From positions 20,489-84,488 of the forward strand of contig JAVCBW010000034.1 of NCBI GenBank assembly GCA_037917675.1: DNA of 64,000 bases, in the 5' to 3' direction. Numbering within the stretch: position 1 is the first letter of the stretch; each line of letters begins with the position of its first letter. A program made the position numbers and the translations under genes. Positions 3,408 to 50,064 of the stretch are shown here, in pieces. The notes beneath the pieces are model-generated. The model worked only from the letters and a program-made list of their open reading frames with translations, did not search any database and had not been told where the DNA came from. The stretch is from Thermoproteota archaeon (lineage in GTDB: Archaea > Korarchaeota > Korarchaeia > B14-G2).

Positions 3408-4097
3408 ATGTGCACCATAGTAGCTCTGCTCTCAGATGGAGAGCTGCTCTTCCTGGAGAACAGAGACATACCAGATGAGAGGTTCATTGGAGACATGCCA
3501 GCTATGCTGAGAGGAGTAGCTGCGTTATTCGACTTGAGGTCGAGTGGCATAGTATGTGGCTATAGCCTAAGGTCTAAGGTGTATGGTGGAGTTGTAAATG
3601 TGCTAGGCTATGAGGCTCCGAAGTCACGTGGTGTACTTCTCCTCAAGACTCTGGTGAAGGCAAGCTCTCTAAGCGATGCCTTAAGCTACATGACTAGGGA
3701 GCTTGAGACAGGAGAGTATAGCTCAGCAGTCTACCTGATAGGTGACATGAGCTCGATGCTGAGAGTCGAGAGCTATGGTAGGAAGGTCTACATAGAGGAG
3801 CTAGACAACACAGCCATAGTGACAAACATATTCCACAGCCTGAGAGACGGCTTGTACCTGGAGGCTTCAGCAGCAAGAGAGGCAGCTGTAAGAGAGTTCC
3901 TACATCATAGGAGCCCTCTCTCACTAGGAGGCATCATGCAGCTAGCAAGGCTCCACAGAGGGCTGGGCTCAGTCTGCAGGCATGGGGTTAAGCACACTGT
4001 CTCAAGCATGATATTCAAGGCTTCTCAAGAGGGGTTTGAAGCATACTACTGCCGTAGCCAGCCATGTAGGTTCCAGTACTCTAAGGTGTGCTTCTAG
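3408..4097 (+). CDS. NRDE/TANGO2-family (Ntn-hydrolase-like) protein
   Basis: Starts Met-Cys (MCTIVALL) followed by an ENRD motif, as in the NRDE/TANGO2 family (from memory); ATG lies 1 nt after the coaBC stop. Confidence 0.5.
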   Translation: MCTIVALLSDGELLFLENRDIPDERFIGDMPAMLRGVAALFDLRSSGIVCGYSLRSKVYGGVVNVLGYEAPKSRGVLLLKTLVKASSLSDALSYMTRELETGEYSSAVYLIGDMSSMLRVESYGRKVYIEELDNTAIVTNIFHSLRDGLYLEASAAREAAVREFLHHRSPLSLGGIMQLARLHRGLGSVCRHGVKHTVSSMIFKASQEGFEAYYCRSQPCRFQYSKVCF

Positions 4098-4123
4098 CCT
4101 AGCATGGAGATGCTTTAGCTAGG

Positions 4124-4900
4124 CTAGCTTGGCTGACGCCTCTCTGGCAGCTTGCAGAAGACTCTCTCTCCTCTCTTAGCGACCTCTACTCCAGCTCTCT
4201 TCAAGCTCTCTTGGACATGAGGGTATAGGACTAGAGTCTCAAACTCGACTTCAGCTAGCTTGCTGCTGATCTCACTCAGCTTTCTGATGAGAGATGCCAG
4301 CTTCCTCTCATCTATGAACTCTAGCATCACTGCTGCGTTACATGACATCCCTTCTCTGACCAGGTTCTCTAGCGCCCTGAGCTGGAGGCTGAACGCCTCT
4401 CTTCCAGCTCCAGTTAGGGCCTCGAAGTCTTCTGGTGTAGCTCCCTTGAGGCTTACTCTCACGTGGGTGAAGTCTCTCGCTTCGCTGGCAAGCTCCTCTG
4501 CATATGCTCTCGAGGACCCGAGCACTATGCCATTTGTTTCAAGTATGAATATCCTCCCTCTCCTGCTATGCTTCAGCTCTCTCAGGACTCCCATGAGGTG
4601 TGTCCAGCCTAGTGTAGGCTCATTTCCACTTATCCTGAGCAGCATGTATCCTCGGCTTTCAGCTATCGAGGTGAGCTTCCCTGCGACTTGCCTTGGGCTG
4701 TAGAACCTGCCTACTGTCTTGAAGCTGTCTCTTGGCTTGGCGCTCCAGCAGAATATGCACCTTAGATTGCAGCCTACACAGTCTGCTGTCGCTATGCCGC
4801 CATAGAATGGAGCTGGCCTGAACCTATAGTACTTTCTCTCCTCTCCTCTGAGGACATGCTCCTCTATAGCCCTACCGTGCTTAAGGGGGTCGAAGGGCAA
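4124..4900 (-). CDS. Radical SAM protein (small, no SPASM region)
   Basis: 258 aa; CNLRCIFC is a CxxxCxxC motif preceded by GGIATADCVG; last gene of the aor operon. Confidence 0.75.
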   Translation of the reverse strand: MPFDPLKHGRAIEEHVLRGEERKYYRFRPAPFYGGIATADCVGCNLRCIFCWSAKPRDSFKTVGRFYSPRQVAGKLTSIAESRGYMLLRISGNEPTLGWTHLMGVLRELKHSRRGRIFILETNGIVLGSSRAYAEELASEARDFTHVRVSLKGATPEDFEALTGAGREAFSLQLRALENLVREGMSCNAAVMLEFIDERKLASLIRKLSEISSKLAEVEFETLVLYPHVQESLKRAGVEVAKRGERVFCKLPERRQPS

Positions 4901-11665: not shown

Positions 11666-13270
11666 TTGCTCACGCTCATAGTTGACGCGCTAGCCTCAGG
11701 GAGAGGCTGGAGAGCTTCAGCTAGAGACGCTATAGGAGCAGGCCCAAGAGCTATAGCTGGAGTCCTCGAGAGGCATGGGCTAGAGTGCAGGATAGCTAGA
11801 GCTGAGGAAGCACTGAGAGAAAGGAGGCTCCTCATGAATGCAGGCGTCATCTTGGCTTCAGCTATGACCATGGACATCGAAGCTCTTAGGAGGCTCTCAT
11901 ATGCTGTGAAGCTCAAGAGCCCTGAGACCCCCATGGTGGCTGGAGGGCCAGCTGCATCAGACCCATATGCTCTCCTCTCGAGGACCCTGTTCGACATAGC
12001 TGTAATAGGAGAGGGAGAGAAGACCCTAGAGGAGCTCCTGAGCATAGGGCTCTCAAGGGGAGCCATACCAGACCCAGACGACCTCAAGTCTGTAAGGGGG
12101 CTGGCATATAGGTGGAGAGGCAGAGTTGTAGTCACAGAGCAGAGGCCTCTGATGTCAGGGGGAGAGCTAGACTCCTATAGGCCGTCAGTGAGGAGGGTAG
12201 CTGACTACCCACACTACTTTGCTGCCAGAGTGTATGTTGAGGTTGTGAGAGGGTGTAGTAACTTCAAGAGGACGTCTCTGAAGCTGAGGAGTGGCTTAGA
12301 GTGCACTGGCTGCAACAGGTGTAGCAGTGGGAGCTTAGCTGAGAGGCTGAGCTGCCCAGCTGGGATAAGGCCAGGATGCGGGTACTGCTCAGTCCCATCG
12401 CTACATGGGCCACCTAGGTCGAGGAGCATCGAGTCCATAACATCAGAGGTCAGGGAGCTCATAGCTCTCGGAGTACATAGGATCGTACTTAGCGCACCAG
12501 ACTTCCTAGACTACATGAGAGAAAAGCTTGTAGAGCCTGAGCCTCTGACAGACCCTAGGAGCCCAGAGCCAAACTACAGTGCCATAGAGGAGCTGCTAGC
12601 TTCCCTGAGGAGCATCGCAGAGGAGTCAGGCGCATACATCATGGTAGAGAACATAAAGCCTTCTCTATTCACTGAGAGAGCTGCTAGGATCCTAGCAGAG
12701 TACCTTCCTGGGACTCCAGTGCACATAGGCTGTGAGACAGGAGACCCAGCTCACTCTAGGATGCTAGGCAGGCCATCAGCTCCATCTGAGGCTCTTGAGG
12801 CAGCTAGGAGGGCAGCGAGACACGGCTTGAGGCCCTACGTGTACTTCATACATGGCCTGCCAGCACAGACACGTGAGACAGTTGAGAGGACAGTGGAGCT
12901 CATAGAGAAGCTTGATGAAGCTGGGGTTGAGAAGGTCACAGTCTATAGGTTTAAGCCTCTCCCGATGTCAGCTTTCGAGCATGAGCCTCCAGGTAGGCCT
13001 GCCTCCAGAGACCCACTGAGCTACAGGATAGTTGAAGCAGCTAGGCAGCTGAACACAAGGAGGAAGATGAGGCTAGTAGGCAAGAGGATGAAGGTCATAG
13101 TTGCAGAGCCACATCCTAGGCACAGGAGATATGCCTATGCATACCCGCTGGAGGATGGGCCAGCAGTGCTGCTAGTAGATGGAGCTGCCATGATAGCTAG
13201 CGTGGTTGAAGCTAAGGTGACTAGAGTCCTTTCAGATAGGCTTGTTGAAGCTGAGGTCTCTGGTAGCTGA
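11666..13270 (+). CDS. Radical SAM protein with B12-binding-like N-domain and TRAM-like C-terminus
   Basis: 534 aa; VEVVRGC...GCGYC cluster motif interrupted by a Cys-rich insert; C-terminal beta-rich KVIVAE...AKVTRVL. Confidence 0.6.
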   Translation: MLTLIVDALASGRGWRASARDAIGAGPRAIAGVLERHGLECRIARAEEALRERRLLMNAGVILASAMTMDIEALRRLSYAVKLKSPETPMVAGGPAASDPYALLSRTLFDIAVIGEGEKTLEELLSIGLSRGAIPDPDDLKSVRGLAYRWRGRVVVTEQRPLMSGGELDSYRPSVRRVADYPHYFAARVYVEVVRGCSNFKRTSLKLRSGLECTGCNRCSSGSLAERLSCPAGIRPGCGYCSVPSLHGPPRSRSIESITSEVRELIALGVHRIVLSAPDFLDYMREKLVEPEPLTDPRSPEPNYSAIEELLASLRSIAEESGAYIMVENIKPSLFTERAARILAEYLPGTPVHIGCETGDPAHSRMLGRPSAPSEALEAARRAARHGLRPYVYFIHGLPAQTRETVERTVELIEKLDEAGVEKVTVYRFKPLPMSAFEHEPPGRPASRDPLSYRIVEAARQLNTRRKMRLVGKRMKVIVAEPHPRHRRYAYAYPLEDGPAVLLVDGAAMIASVVEAKVTRVLSDRLVEAEVSGS

Positions 13271-13294
13271 AGCCAGCTGCCTCACGATGAAATC

Positions 13295-13302
13295 TTTAAA
13301 TA
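13295..13302 (+). promoter_or_regulatory. TATA-like box (TTTAAATA)
   Basis: Centre lies about 24 nt upstream of ATG 13322, favouring a leaderless start there rather than at 13313. Confidence 0.4.
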
Positions 13303-13321
13303 CTTCTGTGCCATGGCACAC

Positions 13322-13684
13322 ATGGTGCTCAGGTTGAAGATAGCTCTAGCATGTAGGAGCAAGAAGGGGTTAAGCAGCCAGCTCTCAGATGTCTTCGCTA
13401 GGTCAGCCTACTTCACGCTCGTCAAGTTAGAAGGCTGTGAGCCTAGGGAAGTCGAGGTCATCGAGAACCCGTACCTAAGCCTCAAGCATGGCATAGGCCC
13501 ACTGATATGTGTCATGCTCAAGAAGGAAGGTGTAGAAGCTGTTGTAGCAGGAGACTTCGGCCCGACAGTCAAGCAGCTCCTGAGGGAGCTTGACATAAGG
13601 CCAGTAAGGGTGAGAGCTGGCCTGAAGGTCTCTGAGGCAATCAAGGAGGTCTGCAGCATGCTACAGGCTAGAAGCTCAGCATAG
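13322..13684 (+). CDS. NifX/NifB-type (dinitrogenase FeMo-cofactor-binding fold) small protein
   Basis: About 120 aa; pattern FARSAYFTLVKLEG...VEAVVAGDFGP typical of this fold; ORF opens at 13313. Confidence 0.6.
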   Translation: MVLRLKIALACRSKKGLSSQLSDVFARSAYFTLVKLEGCEPREVEVIENPYLSLKHGIGPLICVMLKKEGVEAVVAGDFGPTVKQLLRELDIRPVRVRAGLKVSEAIKEVCSMLQARSSA

Positions 13685-13742
13685 GCTTAAAGCATGCTGC
13701 TAGCGTACACAACTGTTATTAATCTCAGCATAGCTCAGGAGG

Positions 13743-14600
13743 GTGGTGTCAGAGATGCGAGAGCAGGCTGCTGAGCGCAGAGAGCTACCTGTGAGGCGTG
13801 AGCAGCCTAAAGGGACTGAGCTGGCTGGCATGAAGGACGTGAAGCATAAGATATCTGTGATGTCAGGGAAGGGAGGAGTAGGTAAGACTACTGTAGCAGT
13901 GAACCTGGCTTTCACACTAGCCTGGAAGGGCTACTCAACTGGGATCCTAGATGCAGACATACATGGGCCTGATGTCCCAAAGATGCTGGGTCTCGAGGGA
14001 GAGCATCCTATAGTAACGAACTCTGGCATCCTACCTGTCCCAGGGCCACTTAACATAAAGGTCATGTCAATGGAGCTCCTCCTAGTGGACTCAAGCACCC
14101 CAGTGATATGGAGAGGGCCTCTGAAGATGCGTGCAATAGAGCAGTTCCTCAGCGAGGTGCTATGGGGCTACCTAGACTTCCTGATAATAGATCTCCCACC
14201 TGGAACAGGAGATGAGCCTCTTAGCATAATGCAGCTCATACCAGACATGAGCGGCGTGATCATAGTGACAACACCACAGGAGGTCGCCTTGCTAGATGTG
14301 AGGAAGGCTATCAACATGGCTAAGAAGCTAAACGTCAGGGTCCTCGGCATAATAGAGAACATGTCTGGCTTCACCTGCCCAAAGTGCGGTGAGACAACGT
14401 ACATATTCGGTGTAGGTGGAGGAGAGAAGGCTGCTAGAGAGCTAGGCATCCCCTTCCTAGGGAGGCTCCCAATAGACGTGAGGGTCAGAGAGGTGAGTGA
14501 CGAGGGCAAGCCCTTCGTACTGGAGCACAGAGAGAGCGAGGTGAGCAAGTCCTTCATGGAGGTCGTTGAGAAGATAGAGAGGGCCCTCGGGCTAGCCTAG
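13743..14600 (+). CDS. apbC: Mrp/NBP35 (ApbC) Fe-S cluster carrier ATPase
   Basis: Deviant Walker [16 protein letters not shown] motif; alternative starts at ATG 13755 and 13830. Confidence 0.85.
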
Positions 14601-42735: not shown

Positions 42736-43935
42736 TTGATAGCTGAGAGAGCGAGGAAGGCCTTAGATAAGCCCTCTAAGTATGGCCCTGACATAGACCT
42801 AAAGTCACTTGAGATACCAAAGGGAGCCATAGACATCCGGTCAAGAGAGGAGGTGGCAGAAGAGTACTCAAGGGAAGCAGAGAAGGTTGGAGTAGACCTG
42901 AGACGGAGAGGAGGATACGTCCAGGTAGATGAGAGGGTGGTCTTCAAGCTCACAAGAGACTGGATGAAGAAGCATGGTGTGCTCCTCATGAGCATGAGGG
43001 AAGCCATAGAGGAGCTCAGCTGGGCTAAAGACTACTACTGGAAGGCTGTTCCAGTAGACGCTGACAAGTATACTGCTACAGTAGAGCTCGCGGAGGCACA
43101 GGGCTACTTCATCTACGTCCCTCCAGGTATCAGAGTAAAGGCCCCAGTGCAGACTTGCCTCCTCCTATATAGGAGTGGCATAGCTCAGCCAGTACATAAC
43201 ATAGTAGTTGTGGAGGAGGGTAGTGAGCTCCACCTGCTGACAGGCTGTGCGTCAGCAGCACATGAGGGGGCGCATCTCAGCGTCTCAGAGTTCTATGTCA
43301 AGAGGAATGCGAAGCTGACCTTCACCATGATACACAGCTGGTCAACAGGCTTAGATGTGAGGCCTAGGACAGGAGTGGTCATAGAGGAGGGTGGAGAGTA
43401 CATAAGCACCTACCTGACACTAGCTCCAGTACGCTCACTTCAGTCCTATCCTATAGCATATCTGAAAGCTGATGCCAAGTGTAGGATGAACACGATCATA
43501 GTGGCCAAGGAGAGGTCGATCATGGACCTAGGAGGGAAGCTCGTCTTTAGAGGAGAGGGAGCAGGAGGAGAGGTTGTGTCTAGGGCTGTAGCGAGAGACG
43601 AGGCCAAAGTATATGCTAGAGGAGCTCTAGTAGGGGAGAAGCCTGGTGTGAGAGGGCATCTGGAGTGCAGTGGCCTGATACTCTCCACAAAAGCTAGGAT
43701 ACTAGCTGCCCCAGAGCTAGATGGGAGGGTGGCTGGAGTAGAGCTCACTCACGAGGCTGCAGTAGGGAAGATAGCAGAGGAGCAGATCACATACCTCATG
43801 GCGAGAGGCTTCACAAGAGAAGAAGCGACATCAATCATAGTGAGAGGGTTCATGGAGGTCAACCTAGAGGGTATACCTCCTGAGCTTGCTACTGAAGTCA
43901 AGAAGGTCCTAGATGCTACAGCCAGAGGCCTCTAG
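42736..43935 (+). CDS. sufB: Fe-S cluster assembly scaffold, SufB/SufD family
   Basis: 399 aa; C-terminal THEAAVGKIAEEQITYLMARGFTREEA motif typical of SufB/D; TTG start. Confidence 0.8.
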   Translation: MIAERARKALDKPSKYGPDIDLKSLEIPKGAIDIRSREEVAEEYSREAEKVGVDLRRRGGYVQVDERVVFKLTRDWMKKHGVLLMSMREAIEELSWAKDYYWKAVPVDADKYTATVELAEAQGYFIYVPPGIRVKAPVQTCLLLYRSGIAQPVHNIVVVEEGSELHLLTGCASAAHEGAHLSVSEFYVKRNAKLTFTMIHSWSTGLDVRPRTGVVIEEGGEYISTYLTLAPVRSLQSYPIAYLKADAKCRMNTIIVAKERSIMDLGGKLVFRGEGAGGEVVSRAVARDEAKVYARGALVGEKPGVRGHLECSGLILSTKARILAAPELDGRVAGVELTHEAAVGKIAEEQITYLMARGFTREEATSIIVRGFMEVNLEGIPPELATEVKKVLDATARGL

Positions 43936-45378: not shown

Positions 45379-45598
45379 AGCTTCAACATCCCATGCTCTA
45401 GGAGCCTCAGCTGCCTCAGCTCCCCCTCTAAGCTTTATGGCGTGAGGAGAGCTAGCCCAGCTGCTGCGTTGAGCGGTGCCATGGAGCTATCCTCTGCAAA
45501 GCCTCCTAGCATCTGTGCCCTATCCATAGCGTGTGGTTTTCAACTGCAAGGTTGCTGCTCCATAGCTCACATGTGGTATGCTGTTTCCGAACACAATC

Positions 45599-45606
45599 TT
45601 TAAAAT
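45599..45606 (+). promoter_or_regulatory. TATA-like box (TTTAAAAT)
   Basis: Centre lies about 35 nt upstream of ATG 45638. Confidence 0.45.
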
Positions 45607-45637
45607 CTAGTGTGCAATAGCACAGAATGGTGAGAGC

Positions 45638-46112
45638 ATGGGTTGGGGTAGAGGATGGCGAGGCTGGGGCTGGTGGGGCCCCTGGCCAGGTAGAGGCCCA
45701 TTCAGCTTCCTACCACCCTGGATGAGGCCAGGATGGGTCTTTGGGAGAGGAGCATGCTGGTGGCTCTTCAGTCCATGGCTATGGACATGGTATACCCCAT
45801 ACATGTACTGGTACATGCCCTACTGGTATACAGGGTACATGCCCTACTGGTATACAGGGTACATGCCATGGTTTAGGTACTGGTGGTGGTAGCATGTGGT
45901 ACTGGCCATACTGGCTATGGGGCTACTGGAGCTGGTGGACACCATGGAGCTGGCTGAGCCCATGGTACACGCCTCCACTCTATGAGCCAGCTGAAGCCAT
46001 GAGGTACATACTTGAAGCAAGGAGGAGCATGCTAGAGCTCCAGAAGAGCATGATAGAATCTGAGCTAAGCCTCATAGAAGAGAGATTGAAGGAGCTGAAG
46101 CCCACTGGCTAA
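45638..46112 (+). CDS. Trp/Tyr-rich DUF5320-like protein; two abutting ORFs (45638-45892, 45894-46112) or one frame-shifted gene
   Basis: N-terminus MGWGRGWRGWGWWGPWPGRGP; 20 Trp in 84 aa, then TAG-C-ATG, then 10 Trp in 25 aa and a coiled-coil tail LELQKSMIESELSLIEERLKELK. Confidence 0.5.
45811..45867 (+). repeat. Perfect 24-nt tandem repeat (2.4 copies) encoding YMPYWYTG units
   Basis: GTACATGCCCTACTGGTATACAGG at 45811-45834 and 45835-45858; third copy matches for 9 nt. Confidence 0.9.
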
Positions 46113-46248
46113 GCACACACCACACCTCCATTTGAGCAGCCTAACCCTCATCCCATAGCTAAGAGGATAGCACTTAGCGAAGCTAGTATCCTAAGAGTGT
46201 GGAATACACTTGACAGTGCTAGAAGGAGACTGCGAATTCGCTAGGCAC

Positions 46249-46258
46249 ATATTTAAAC
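46249..46258 (+). promoter_or_regulatory. TATA-like box (ATATTTAAAC)
   Basis: Centre lies about 33 nt upstream of ATG 46287. Confidence 0.45.
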
Positions 46259-46286
46259 ATCCACCCACAAGCTTGAATGTGTCTTT

Positions 46287-46883
46287 ATGAGGAAGATAGC
46301 GGTCTCATCCCAGAGCTCAGGAGGGCTAGAAGACTACGTGTCCCCTGTGCTAGCTAGGTGCCCAGTCTTCACGATAGTTGATGTTGAGGATGATGAGATC
46401 AAGAGCGTCACAACCTTACAGAACCCTGCCATGTCAGCTCCAATGGGAGCTGGAATGCAGGCAGCTCAGATGCTAGCGAACCAGGGAGTAGAGGCTGTTA
46501 TAGCAGGGAGAGTAGGCCCAAACGCATGGGCAGCCCTAAACAGTCTAGGCATAAAGTTCGTACAGGCATCAGGAATCAAGGTGAAAGAGGCTATAGAGAA
46601 GTACATCAGAGGAGAGCTCCAGCCAGCTACATCACCAACCGGGAGAGGAATGAGAGCATGGGGCAGGCCACCAGCTCCATCAGCACCAGCGCCACCAGCA
46701 CCAGCTCCATCGATGCCACAGTTCCAGTATCCACAGCAGCCCTATCCTCCCATGTGGGCTCCTCCTCCGCTTCCACCTGAGATGGAGCTACAGATGCTGG
46801 AGAGCATGAAGAGGATGATAGAGGAGCACTTGAGGATAGTCAGTCAGAGGATAGAGCAGCTAAAGAGGCAGCTTAGCAGGTAG
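46287..46883 (+). CDS. NifX/NifB-type domain fused to a DUF5320-like Pro-rich and coiled-coil tail
   Basis: 198 aa; N-half RCPVFTIVDVEDDE...EAVIAGRVGPNA; C-half PTGRGMRAWGRPPAPSAPAPP...LQMLESMKRMIEEHLRIVSQRIEQLKRQL. Confidence 0.6.
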   Translation: MRKIAVSSQSSGGLEDYVSPVLARCPVFTIVDVEDDEIKSVTTLQNPAMSAPMGAGMQAAQMLANQGVEAVIAGRVGPNAWAALNSLGIKFVQASGIKVKEAIEKYIRGELQPATSPTGRGMRAWGRPPAPSAPAPPAPAPSMPQFQYPQQPYPPMWAPPPLPPEMELQMLESMKRMIEEHLRIVSQRIEQLKRQLSR

Positions 46884-46886
46884 CTG

Positions 46887-47867
46887 ATGGAGTTGAGTAC
46901 AGTATACGGGCCAGTGCAGTCTTGGAGGTTTGGGAGGTCACTTGGCATAGATGCTATCAAGCCTCCGAAGAAGTGCACCTATAGCTGCATATACTGCCAG
47001 CTCGGGAGGACAGTACACTACCTCAGGTCTCCAAGAGATCTGAAGCAGCCTGTGACGTCAGAGGAGGTTGAAGCTGAGCTCAGGAGCTATGTCACCAAGC
47101 TCAGCACAGCTGACATAGACTTCGTTACGGTCTCAGGCTGTGGTGAGCCTACACTCAACCCCATGCTCAAGGGCATCATAGAGGCTGTCAGAAGAGTGCT
47201 CCCAGGGAAGCGTATAGTAGTCCTCACGAACTCATCTCTCATGCACCTAAGAGAGGTGAGGGAGGCTCTAGGTGAAGCTGACATCACAGTAGCAAAGCTA
47301 GATGCTGGAGACGAGAAGGCATACAGGCTAGTGAACAGGCCAGCTCCAGGTATGCCTGGAGTAAGAGAGCTTGCCTCCTCCATCAGGGAGGCGAGAAGTA
47401 TGCTCAAGTGCCTGATGCTCCAGGTCATGCTCCTAGAGACCACGTGGGGCTTTTCAAATGCAAGGCCACCACACTTAGATAGCCTACTAGACTTGATACT
47501 CGACATAAGCCCAGATGTGGTTCAGCTTGAAGTCCCATATAGGCCCCCAGCTGAGCCCTATGTTAAGGTGCCGCCGAGGGAGGATGTACTTAGTGCTCAC
47601 AAAGCTCTAGTAGGCTACTTTGGAGGAGACAGAGTCTGGACTTATGGACTCCACGATGAGCGTGGCAAGCCAGTCAGGTGGCTAGCTGAGGCTAGCGAGC
47701 ACATGGTGCTGGAGCTGCTTGCTAGAAGGCCCTGTACAGTACAGGAGCTAGCTCAGTCTCTAAGTATCCCTCAAGATGAAGTTGAGCTAACCTTAAAGTC
47801 TCTCCTTGAAAGAGGGTTGATCACCTACATGGAGTCAGGTGGCCTCGTGTACTATGTTGTGAGGTGA
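46887..47867 (+). CDS. Radical SAM protein with C-terminal winged-helix-like domain
   Basis: 326 aa; CTYSCIYC is a CxxxCxxC motif after GRSLGIDAIKPP; no C-terminal Cys cluster (no SPASM); tail LARRPCTVQELAQSLSIPQDEVELTLKSLLERGLI. Confidence 0.75.
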   Translation: MELSTVYGPVQSWRFGRSLGIDAIKPPKKCTYSCIYCQLGRTVHYLRSPRDLKQPVTSEEVEAELRSYVTKLSTADIDFVTVSGCGEPTLNPMLKGIIEAVRRVLPGKRIVVLTNSSLMHLREVREALGEADITVAKLDAGDEKAYRLVNRPAPGMPGVRELASSIREARSMLKCLMLQVMLLETTWGFSNARPPHLDSLLDLILDISPDVVQLEVPYRPPAEPYVKVPPREDVLSAHKALVGYFGGDRVWTYGLHDERGKPVRWLAEASEHMVLELLARRPCTVQELAQSLSIPQDEVELTLKSLLERGLITYMESGGLVYYVVR

Positions 47868-47871
47868 GCTC

Positions 47872-48279
47872 TTGAAGGTAGCTATCCCATGCTATAGCCC
47901 AGGTGGATTAAGCTCTCAGATCTGCCCCCACTTAGGTAGGTGTGATGTCTTCACGATAGCTGAGCTCAAGGGGAGAGAAGTGAGCTGCATAGAGCTTCTG
48001 CCCAATACAGGAGCACACATGGGAGGAGGCATGAGGCCAGCTGAGCTCCTAGCTCAAGCTGGAGTCGATGCTGTGCTCTGCCGTGGAATAGGGATGAGAG
48101 CTCTAGCTCTACTGAGCTCAAAGGGGATCAAGGTCTACTACACCTCAGCTTCCACAGCTAGAGAGGCCATAGAGGAGCTCCTTGAGGGGAGAGCTAGGCA
48201 CATGGATGAGGCTCTAGCATGTCCAGGAGAGCATCACCATAGGTGGAGCCATGGAGGAGCTCGTCATAGTCAGTGGTAA
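47872..48279 (+). CDS. NifX/NifB-type small protein
   Basis: 135 aa; MKVAIPC...HLGRCDVFTIAEL...VDAVLCRGIGMRA; TTG start; 3' end overlaps the next gene by 29 nt. Confidence 0.6.
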   Translation: MKVAIPCYSPGGLSSQICPHLGRCDVFTIAELKGREVSCIELLPNTGAHMGGGMRPAELLAQAGVDAVLCRGIGMRALALLSSKGIKVYYTSASTAREAIEELLEGRARHMDEALACPGEHHHRWSHGGARHSQW

Positions 48280-49135
48280 GGGGGGTGTAGGCAAGACATC
48301 AATTGCAGCCTCACTTGCAGTGCTTCTTTCAAGGAAGCTTAAGATCATAGCAGCAGACACAGATGTTGATGCACCGAACCTAGCGATAGTGCTGGGAGCA
48401 GAGCTCAGAAGAGAGCTTGAAGTCAGGAGCTCAGAGAAGGCTGTAGTAGACGCAGGCAAGTGCACAGGCTGCGGGAAGTGCGTTGAGGTCTGCAAGTTCA
48501 GCTCAATAACCCTAGCTGAGGGCAGAGCTGTAGTAGACAAGCTGACATGTGAAGGCTGTGGAGCATGTAGCATAGTCTGCCCAGCTGATGCAGTCAGAAT
48601 AATGCAGGTGAAGACTGGGGAAGTAGGTGTAGCAGAGACAGAGTATGGATTCAAGCTTGTATCAGGACACCTGGAGATAGGTGAAGCGAACTCAGGCCAT
48701 GTTGTGACAGCAGTGAAGTGGCTTGCTAGGAGGAGAGCTGAGGAGGACGGCGCTGACCTCATCATCGTAGATGGCCCACCAGGCATAGGGTGTCCTGTGA
48801 TAGCCTCACTTGCAGCTGCATCACATGCCGTAGTCGTCTCAGAGCCTACTCCAGCTGGAGCATGGAGCTTAACCAGGCTAATCCAAGTGATCAACCACTT
48901 CAAGATACCATTCATGCTGGTAGTCAACAAGTGGAGCCTAAGCCTCCAGTATGCTACAGCCCTAGAGGCTTTAGCTAAGCAAAGTGGTGGAGAGCCTGTT
49001 GCTAGGATCCCTGTAGACTACACGATAGCTGAGGCTATGGCGTTGAGGAAGCCTGTAGTAGCCTACAGGCCGGAGGCAGAGTCTTCGAAGGCCATAGCTA
49101 AGCTAGCTGACGTGATCCTAGAGAGGCTGAGCTGA
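48251..49135 (+). CDS. MinD/ParA-type P-loop ATPase with inserted 2x[4Fe-4S] ferredoxin domain
   Basis: Deviant Walker [11 protein letters not shown]; CTGCGKCVEVC and CEGCGACSIVCP. Confidence 0.8.
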   Translation: MEELVIVSGKGGVGKTSIAASLAVLLSRKLKIIAADTDVDAPNLAIVLGAELRRELEVRSSEKAVVDAGKCTGCGKCVEVCKFSSITLAEGRAVVDKLTCEGCGACSIVCPADAVRIMQVKTGEVGVAETEYGFKLVSGHLEIGEANSGHVVTAVKWLARRRAEEDGADLIIVDGPPGIGCPVIASLAAASHAVVVSEPTPAGAWSLTRLIQVINHFKIPFMLVVNKWSLSLQYATALEALAKQSGGEPVARIPVDYTIAEAMALRKPVVAYRPEAESSKAIAKLADVILERLS

Positions 49136-50064
49136 TGCCTAGGATAGCAGTGACAGGAGGTAAGGGAGGTACAGGGAAGACGACTATAGCAGTCAACATA
49201 GCATACACTCTAGCCCAAATGGGTGTCAGAGCCCTCTTAATAGATGCTGACGTAGATGCACCAAGCTGCTCAAGGCTCCTAGGTGTAGCCACAGCCAGAG
49301 TGCTTGATGTCAAATCCTTCCTCCCAGCAGTAGACTCAGAGAAGTGCATGATGTGTGGCCTATGTGCACAGGCATGCAGGCCACATGCCCTAGTCCATGT
49401 CGAAGGCAGGATCCCAATGCTCTTCCCAGAGCTCTGCTCAGGCTGTGAGGCATGTAAGCTAGTATGCCCAAGCAGCGCAATCAAAGAGTCCTCGAAGCTC
49501 CTAGGCTGGGTCAACATGGCAGAAGCACATGGAATAACCCTAGTGGAGGGAGAGCTGCAGCCAACTGAGGCCAGATCCACGCTAGTCCTACTGAAGGCAA
49601 TAGAGTATGCTAGAGGCTTGAGGTCAGAGAGAGGCTATGATGTAACCATAGTAGACACAGCTCCAGGAACACACTGCAATGTGATACATGCGATAAGGGG
49701 AGCTGACCTAGCTCTAGCAGTCACTGAGCCGACGCCACTAGGTGCACATGACCTTGAGCTCATCCTCAAGCTCACAGAAAAGCTCAGGGTCAAGGCTACA
49801 GTGGTCTTAAACAGAGCAGACCTACCTGGAGGCACACCATCTGAGGTGAGAGAAGTCGCTAGAAGACATAACGCCCCTATAGTAGCTGAGATACCACTAG
49901 ACCCACTAATCCAGAGCAGCCACATCCAAGGGAAGCCTGTCCTAGAGATAGCTCCCAGCTCCAGGGCAGCAGAAGCCTTCAGAGCTCTAGCTAAGACAGC
50001 GCTAAGGCTAGCTACACCTGAGCATGAGCCACAGAGTGAGCCTCCAGCTGCTAAATGCACCTAA
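49135..50064 (+). CDS. Second MinD/ParA-type P-loop ATPase with inserted 2x[4Fe-4S] ferredoxin domain
   Basis: GGKGGTGKTT; CMMCGLCAQAC and CSGCEACKLVCP; ATG overlaps the previous stop. Confidence 0.8.
   Translation: MPRIAVTGGKGGTGKTTIAVNIAYTLAQMGVRALLIDADVDAPSCSRLLGVATARVLDVKSFLPAVDSEKCMMCGLCAQACRPHALVHVEGRIPMLFPELCSGCEACKLVCPSSAIKESSKLLGWVNMAEAHGITLVEGELQPTEARSTLVLLKAIEYARGLRSERGYDVTIVDTAPGTHCNVIHAIRGADLALAVTEPTPLGAHDLELILKLTEKLRVKATVVLNRADLPGGTPSEVREVARRHNAPIVAEIPLDPLIQSSHIQGKPVLEIAPSSRAAEAFRALAKTALRLATPEHEPQSEPPAAKCT

Follow-up and report, generated by a model that had tools for sequence, protein, structure and literature searches.

The 64,000-nucleotide (nt) stretch of contig JAVCBW010000034.1 from a korarchaeial archaeon, which we call the window and whose positions are used throughout, contains two small abutting genes with hyper-aromatic products, g1 (open reading frame (ORF) 1) and g2 (ORF2). 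We are highly confident that g1 and g2 are two separate, real genes. They represent a split variant of an uncharacterised protein family, one that is real, conserved and so far undescribed, and that is not unique to this genome. By analogy with the tail of the iron-sulfur (Fe-S) storage protein IssA, the locus can be read, with a likelihood that we place a little short of even, as a two-gene operon acting as a detachable IssA-tail-like Fe-S module together with NifX-like proteins.

The g1 gene (45638-45892, forward strand, +) encodes a cationic protein of 84 amino acids (aa). Its 20 Trp, 11 Tyr and 5 Phe make up 36 of the 84 residues (42.9%), compared with a Trp share of 1.05% in the long ORFs of the window. 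It also contains 6 Arg, 13 Gly and 11 Pro, and has no acidic residue. Residues 1-15 are GW/GR-rich, residues 16-42 form an invariant core, and residues 43-84 make up a Trp/Tyr/Pro/Met tail that ends in WWW. Part of this tail is encoded by a perfect 24-nt tandem duplication (45811-45867, +), so that YMPYWYTG is encoded twice: positions 45811-45834 are identical to 45835-45858, and a 9-nt partial third copy follows. Tandem Repeats Finder also retrieved it (period 24, 2.4 copies, 100% matches). The 3' end of g1 reads TGG TGG TGG TAG (45881-45892), and a single C (45893) separates it from the ATG of g2 at 45894. The g2 gene (45894-46112, +), in the +1 frame relative to g1, encodes 72 aa and stops at a TAA (46110-46112). 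Its aromatic head (residues 1-30) contains 10 Trp, all of them within the first 25 residues. The composition, the junction and the duplication are thus as described in the original prediction, which was made from the sequence alone. No transmembrane-like segment is present, the maximum Kyte-Doolittle mean over 19 residues being 0.44.

The original prediction left two options for this junction, namely two tiny abutting genes, or one protein of about 157 aa for which a +1 shift would be needed or whose gene has a 1-nt insertion. The former proved right. Contigs from two other, independent sequencing runs (L086 and L087) show the same junction, TGGTGGTGGTAGCATGTGG. Among 185,579 species genomes, the closest relative of the window is L006, a metagenome-assembled genome of an uncultured Thermoproteota from the Guaymas Basin, syntenic over all its 5 kb. 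Alignment with this orthologue, which the prediction had proposed for repeat and frame, showed that L006 lacks the 24-nt duplication and that its junction is TGGTGGTAG-CA-ATG, that is, a TAG followed by a 2-nt gap; the frame of g2 relative to g1 therefore differs from that in the window. The g1-g2 spacings are different again in two further loci (L038 and L048). A stop followed by a restart was found in 52 of 58 loci with aromatic tails, the downstream ORF starting between -22 and +41 nt from the stop, and the frame offset across these 52 loci was 0 in 18, +1 in 12 and +2 in 22. Since all three offsets are present, no single recoding rule fits, and no conserved frame relation with a slippery site, as expected of a programmed frameshift, was found among the orthologues. 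A Shine-Dalgarno (SD)-like core was detected within 18 nt 5' of the g2 start in 46 of 49 g1-g2 junctions, compared with 23% in background sequence. In the window, the terminal Trp codons of g1 double as this element, GGTGGTGG, followed by the TAG and the single spacer base (45882-45893, +). The use of the last Trp codons as the SD-like core of g2 may partly explain why 21 of 54 aromatic-type family members end in WW.

Substitutions between the window and L006 were counted in every frame. In the g1 core, nine are synonymous and one is non-synonymous, giving a ratio of non-synonymous to synonymous change (pN/pS) of 0.03, while in the other two frames the ratio is 2.7, or undefined with zero synonymous change. 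For g2, pN/pS is 0.27 in its own frame and 0.6 and 1.6 in the other two. These values indicate that purifying selection is acting on g1 and g2, each in its own frame.

A single protein of about 157 aa, interrupted by a sequencing or assembly error or a pseudogenising insertion, or restored by a programmed +1 frameshift, would account for the shared composition of two ORFs lying 1 nt apart, and would resemble the chains of other lineages in which a g1 core and a coil are found together. It is nonetheless highly improbable, as the junction is reproduced in two other assemblies, the spacings and offsets vary between loci, SD-like cores precede the g2 start, and some loci carry a double stop (TGA TAG in L001). 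A +1 frameshift is further disfavoured because a tRNA-Trp decoding UGG could not re-pair well on GGU, and an artificial g1+g2 fusion scores lower on the Pfam DUF5320 profile than g2 alone (15.2 versus 20.2 bits). A non-coding TGG/CCA microsatellite with frames open by chance, one of the outcomes that the original prediction considered fatal to its proposal, would fit the TGG periodicity and the 24-nt and 18-nt tandem repeats. Its probability is close to nil: it is already contradicted by substitutions that are synonymous and frame-specific, by a 27-residue core that is invariant across archaeal phyla, by the conservation of start, SD and operator, and by the exact g2 protein having been called in other assemblies. 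We reject all three readings of the locus, as a frameshifted gene, as the product of a sequencing error and as a microsatellite.

The core of g1, WPGRGPFSFLPPWMRPGWVFGRGACWW (45683-45763, +), spans 27 residues and has a single conserved cysteine, Cys40. It is common to 21 homologues, and the family alignment (A1) contains 19 invariant columns between W16 and C40, with W41 nearly invariant. The family consensus, WPGRGPFSxLPPWxRPGWxFGRGACWW, has one cysteine, and no Pfam or NCBIfam model covers it. We retrieved the g1 family in at least 302 archaeal species loci, distributed over Thermoproteota, Bathyarchaeia, Hadarchaeota, Methanomethylicia, Thermococci, Methanocellales and Asgard relatives; a library of 1.84 billion proteins yielded 134 clusters at 50% identity. 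In the 54 aromatic-type relatives, Trp makes up 19% and all aromatic residues together 37% of the protein (medians), and 49 of these relatives are devoid of acidic residues. The high aromatic share is hence a family trait, neither a product of chance nor a one-off. Trp content reaches 34% in the family, and the g1 of the window ranks 12th of 73 in this respect. Some loci depart from the paired layout: L049 has two g1-type genes in tandem (3950-4156, and from 4207 onward), and in L018 and L065 g1 is followed by a second, purely aromatic ORF of about 90 aa, without a coil and ending in FWW or YWW. These arrangements suggest further variants of the pair.

For g1, an exact-protein look-up in the gene-call collection returned zero records; for g2, the identical protein is called in two other assemblies. 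Outside this assembly, g1 is apparently either uncalled or unassembled. Position 1 of both L086 (SRR14241346) and L087 (SRR24907187), which are Logan contigs, is the same base inside the 24-nt repeat of g1, an expected break point of short-read assemblies. This repeat seems to break such assemblies, so g1 may be systematically missed. The copy number of the 24-nt unit may vary. The g2 head has a tandem repeat too, an imperfect one of 18 nt (45927-45965; 2.2 copies, 80% matches) that encodes WSWWTP / WSWLSP. The aromatic segments of both g1 and g2 seem to grow by slippage or duplication.

Beyond its head, g2 is predicted by AlphaFold2 to form a 37-residue helix (residues 32-68), with block-mean predicted local distance difference test (pLDDT) values of about 89-99 and the heptad pattern of an amphipathic coiled coil. 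The original prediction had noted that this tail resembles that of the next gene, and the two are indeed 44% identical over 25 aa (E 1e-5). It had also likened the locus to DUF5320 (PF17253), uncharacterised small proteins of anaerobes, and proposed a search with both halves and their fusion. In that search, g1 gave zero matches to Pfam at E up to 1, g2 aligned through residues 12-68 to profile positions 50-99, and the fusion brought no gain over the separate ORFs. The scores of g2 and of the fusion, given above, fall below the Pfam gathering cut-off of 27 bits, and neither ORF has an NCBIfam match. A word-index homologue search with g2 alone produced no candidate. The likeness to DUF5320 thus holds for the C-terminal amphipathic coiled coil (profile positions ~50-99), which g2 possesses. 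It fails for the proposed DUF5320-like start of g1, a 'GRG...C' resemblance by eye only: the Gly/Arg-rich N-terminal part of the profile (1-42) is not matched by any tested member of the g1 family, in which only positions ~43 to 99 are ever matched.

The likeness is extended by single-chain relatives from Bathyarchaeia, Methanocellales and other lineages, proteins of about 90 aa in which a g1 core and a coil occur together and which pass the DUF5320 cut-off at 28.2 bits. Given these relatives, the window pair can be described as a split DUF5320-like protein, broken in an expanded aromatic linker. DUF5320 proteins share with it the C-terminal amphipathic coil, a G/R-rich N-part with a single Cys, and the vicinity of NifX-like, MinD-ferredoxin and DUF134 genes. 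They differ in that the invariant g1 core falls outside the profile, that g1 and g2 of the window remain under the cut-off, and that the DUF5320 profile describes one polypeptide, whereas the window and 52 of 58 aromatic-type loci have separate cistrons, the linker having grown into segments that are 40-50% aromatic. In other lineages, some g2 genes start with MGYRWRRMYYLTGLPGW and continue into coils, one of them scoring 36.5 bits on DUF5320; another form of g2 is a Met/aromatic amphipathic helix. The locus thus offers an example of natural gene fission held together by translational coupling, in which the last Trp codons of one gene would double as the ribosome-binding site of the next. It also carries a warning for annotation, as g1 has no gene-call record, while a 123-aa ORF in the wrong frame, which extends the g2 frame upstream to a TTG (45741-46112), scores 27.9 bits and so clears the DUF5320 threshold. 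We rejected this ORF: its first 51 codons are a +1 reading of Trp/Tyr codons, which out of frame read as G/T/C/P-rich sequence, and they overlap the g1 frame that is under selection; the corresponding frame is closed by a stop in L006.

The promoter of the g1-g2 pair can be read from the sequence. A TATA-box-like element, CTTTAAAAT (45598-45606, +), presumably with a promoter role, is followed by the operator-like palindrome TGTGCAATAGCACA (TGTGC-N4-GCACA, 14 bp; 45611-45624), which lies between the TATA box and the start codon, and by an SD-like GGTGAG (45629-45634, +) placed 3 nt before the g1 ATG. Most related loci have A/T-rich TATA-like elements beside the operator, as well as GGTGA or GGAGGTGA ahead of the g1 start, and two palindrome copies often flank the TATA box. 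Across 80 loci we counted 45 exact copies of the palindrome versus 0.4 in shuffled sequences, and almost every copy falls in the ~100 nt that precede g1. A scan for sigma-70 promoters and terminators, which is not applicable to an archaeon, had the operator palindrome as its sole match. Within the window there are two exact palindromes, versus 0.05 expected in 64 kb. The only other copy, TGTGCCATGGCACA (13307-13320), belongs to a second promoter with the same TATA-plus-operator layout (13284-14600, +, including the operon that it precedes), where the palindrome lies 14 nt on from the TATA element ctttaaata. Behind this operator are a NifX-like gene (13313-13684, +; PF02579, 53 bits) and an Mrp/NBP35-type Fe-S carrier ATPase (13743-14600, +; PF10609, 342 bits). 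Both operator-bearing promoters probably belong to the same regulon. The position of the palindrome between TATA box and start codon suggests repression, and the putative factor that binds it is probably a repressor and possibly a DUF134 protein. The strongly conserved TGTGC-N4-GCACA operator delimits a small regulon, related to Fe-S, that spans archaeal phyla, and it offers a lead to a testable transcription factor.

The g1-g2 pair is followed by genes of Fe-S metabolism. The next gene (46287-46883, +) encodes a NifX-like domain (PF02579, Pfam 78.1 bits), a Pro-rich linker and a DUF5320-type coil tail, the latter with a weak match to Pfam DUF5320; the arrangement is syntenic in L006. Downstream are a radical S-adenosylmethionine (SAM) protein with a C-terminal winged helix domain (46887-47867, +; Pfam), a second, single-domain NifX-like protein (47872-48279, +; PF02579, 79.2 bits) and two MinD/ParA-type P-loop ATPases of the Orp3/Orp4 type with an inserted 2x[4Fe-4S] ferredoxin (48251-49135 and 49135-50064, +; Pfam and NCBIfam). 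We counted the genes encoded within 6 kb in 80 species loci. NifX-like genes were present in 53, DUF134 in 51, MinD-ferredoxin genes in 42 and a homologue of the radical SAM gene in 16. Gene fusions provide a further link of the Rosetta-stone kind: in four loci (L033, L040, L061 and L070), a single chain combines a g2-type coil with a GW/GR region and a NifX-like domain, and in L027 one protein unites DUF134 with a g1 core and a coil. In addition, 28 of 89 neighbouring NifX-like ORFs are extended by at least 35 aa, by a sequence that in most of the extensions listed is G/R-rich, Pro-rich or coiled-coil. In cultured Thermococcus aggregans (complete genome CP099582.1), the start of the g1 homologue (around 1,731,193-1,731,399) overlaps the stop codon of a gene for an IssA paralogue. 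We consider it likely that g1/g2 are functional partners of the NifX-like/MinD-ferredoxin system.

The T. aggregans locus (L088, 2501-3294) has some features of its own. Its g1 homologue has 68 aa, ends in GYWWDW and is not followed by g2. The tail of the IssA paralogue is Pro-rich, then Cys-rich (CIHYKEGKCEFW...DPACPFF), with a WRWW end, and the operon is preceded by an operator with one mismatch, TTTGCATATGCACA.

The nearest characterised analogue of g1 is the tail of IssA (PF2025) from Pyrococcus furiosus, a thioferrate iron-sulfur storage protein whose tail has been proposed to wrap anionic thioferrate, with stacking by aromatic residues (PMC5524996). The original prediction, which did not name this tail, knew of no characterised protein as dense in Trp as g1; we met nothing that contradicts this, although no search was aimed at it. 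In the IssA sequence, retrieved through a NifX-like query from Thermococci, the tail reads ...FGWGRGWGKGRGWGRGWGSILGYCPWTGMPSRRALRWYYGWW. This tail and g1 are alike in being cationic and aromatic, rich in W/G/R and unstructured by prediction, and each has GWGRG repeats, one Cys and a WW end. Both are associated with a NifX-like domain (IPR003731/PF02579), and the g1 homologue of T. aggregans is translationally coupled to an IssA paralogue. The linkage of such a segment to an IPR003731 domain, which defines the IssA type, is found in the window in trans: the IssA tail lies in the same chain as the domain, while its counterpart here is a free-standing protein pair, in which g1, with its strictly invariant core, comes with the coiled-coil partner g2. 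The NifX-like protein at 46287-46883 shares the Pro-rich linker of IssA and is without the W/G/R segment.

On this basis we propose the following mechanism. A factor acting on the TGTGC-N4-GCACA operator would set expression. Ribosomes stopping at the TAG would restart one base on, aided by the SD-like element from the g1 Trp codons, and this translational coupling would give roughly equal amounts of g1 and g2. Coupling and the existence of single-chain relatives together argue that the two proteins act jointly and in about equal amounts. They may associate through their aromatic segments, and the g2 coil may pair with the homologous coil tail of the NifX-like protein 46287-46883, the proposed docking partner; the identity between the two coils makes a mixed coiled coil plausible. 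In such an assembly g1 would supply the W/G/R chemistry that the neighbouring NifX-like protein is without, and the pair would bind and wrap an Fe-S species that is inorganic and anionic. This species would be thioferrate-like, or else a cluster on which the NifX-like/MinD-ferredoxin proteins act. That g1/g2 bind Fe-S material in the manner of the IssA tail is conceivable, and we hold it with somewhat less confidence than the module as a whole.

Several observations weigh against this interpretation. Homology between g1 and the IssA tail could not be demonstrated by BLASTP (E 0.96), and profile-profile comparison (hhalign) gave a probability of 10% over 7 columns, covering the GWGRG motif only. 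Compared with the IssA tail, g1 contains far more Trp/Tyr and less Gly, and its invariant core suggests a specific protein or ligand contact, not loose electrostatic wrapping. AlphaFold2, run on g1 with 22 sequences, returned a mean pLDDT of 49.6 and no confident fold; on this model g1 is probably disordered when alone. In about one third of the loci no NifX-like gene lies within 6 kb, and the 64-kb window contains no DUF134 gene. In the literature searched for DUF5320 and DUF134, we found no functional study. As homology is not demonstrable, the relation to IssA is, in our assessment, one of analogy, based on composition, short motifs and genomic context.

Three other functions were considered for the pair. 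With a conserved leader-like part followed by a hypervariable aromatic tail, g1 could be the precursor of a ribosomally synthesised and post-translationally modified peptide (RiPP), in which the core would act as leader and the tail as core peptide, cross-linked by the radical SAM enzyme as in a Trp/Tyr cyclophane. The radical SAM gene lies 1 kb downstream both in the window and in L006, and fast-evolving core regions typically show recent tandem duplications such as the one in the tail. However, since homologues of this gene are nearby in only 16 of the 80 loci, compared with 53 for NifX-like and 51 for DUF134 genes, its tie to g1 is loose and lends the idea little support. The enzyme, moreover, carries a winged helix only and has no SPASM or peptide-recognition match, so that consistent adjacency to a maturase with such a domain was not found; a coiled coil replaces the aromatic tail in relatives; and no protease or exporter gene was seen in 45.6-50 kb, the part of the cluster examined. 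A RiPP precursor is thus quite unlikely. A purely structural role is slightly less so: g1/g2 would be an aromatic/Arg 'sticker' scaffold, a condensate or a membrane-interface anchor for the MinD-like/NifX-like proteins, with no inorganic ligand. The Arg and Trp/Tyr composition without acidic residues and the low AlphaFold2 confidence agree with such a scaffold, and relatives of Orp3 and Orp4 are known to localise via amphipathic helices, MrpORP being polar (PMC6345978). The hydropathy maximum of 0.44, with no transmembrane-like segment, and an invariant core with one Cys, which argues for a specific contact, speak against it, although it overlaps with the Fe-S module proposed here and does not exclude it.

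Alternatively, g1/g2 might be a regulatory accessory controlling Fe-S cluster genes, either a Cys-bearing sensor or co-factor of DUF134 or an RG-rich nucleic-acid binder. DUF134 is the second commonest neighbour and is fused to a g1 core and coil in L027, the operator is associated more closely with g1 than with any other gene, and the DUF134 and DUF5320 proteins of M. mazei have been flagged as carrying an RG-rich quadruplex-binding motif (PMC7565180). Nevertheless, fusions to NifX-like domains outnumber that to DUF134, translation of g1 is coupled to that of an IssA paralogue in Thermococcus, and the pair is present in a window from which DUF134 is absent. We also know of no precedent for a 40% aromatic tail in DNA-binding co-factors. 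We regard a regulatory role as improbable, even if it is the least so of these three alternatives to an IssA-tail-like module.

The downstream genes are of the types that make up the IssA family (PMC5524996) and also the ORP complex of Desulfovibrio, for which five proteins are listed, including Orp3/4, Orp5/8 and MrpORP (PMC6345978). Two MinD-like ATPases with ferredoxin inserts and single-domain NifX-like proteins are shared, and an Mrp/NBP35 carrier is present, but elsewhere in the window. None of the five listed ORP proteins is a g1/g2-like subunit (PMC6345978). Expression in Desulfovibrio involves sigma-54 and an enhancer-binding protein, in contrast to the archaeal TATA promoter with its palindromic operator, and the NCBIfam MrpORP matches are far under the cut-off (36-73 bits versus 450).

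Iron and sulfur storage and transport in anaerobic archaea are poorly understood. In the literature that we searched, Fe-S storage has been characterised for one protein, IssA, whose W/G/R tail has a model-based role. Here, a segment resembling this tail is a gene of its own, conserved across loci that include a cultured T. aggregans strain with a complete genome, and as a separate gene it can be deleted, tagged and restored on its own. For DUF5320-like proteins, the proposed module is also the first hypothesis of function to draw on genomic context. A more speculative extension, which we think unlikely though not negligible, is that the locus encodes an undescribed class of protein-mineral interface of anaerobic archaea, in which a free-standing, translationally coupled pair of cationic, hyper-aromatic mini-proteins is assembled onto NifX-like scaffolds through aromatic stacking and a coiled coil, under a repressor/operator circuit that spans phyla. 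The pair would then cap, template or electronically couple iron-sulfide polymers or clusters. If that were true, IssA-type Fe-S storage would be modular and multi-subunit, and would be widespread in Thermoproteota, Bathyarchaeia, Hadarchaeota, Methanomethylicia and Thermococci.

Further features were noted around the two operons. A scan of the whole window against Rfam gave zero matches. A gene with a SufBD core for Fe-S assembly (42736-43935) lies 1.7 kb upstream of g1, and about 40 nt separate the end of a B12-binding radical SAM gene (11666-13270) from the NifX/Mrp operon controlled by the second operator. Between g2 and the NifX-like gene at 46287, another perfect palindrome, GCGAATTCGC (46229-46259), is located about 10 nt upstream of TATTTAAACA, the TATA-like element of that gene. 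This palindrome is kept in L006 (~540-575), while the flanking intergenic sequence diverges.

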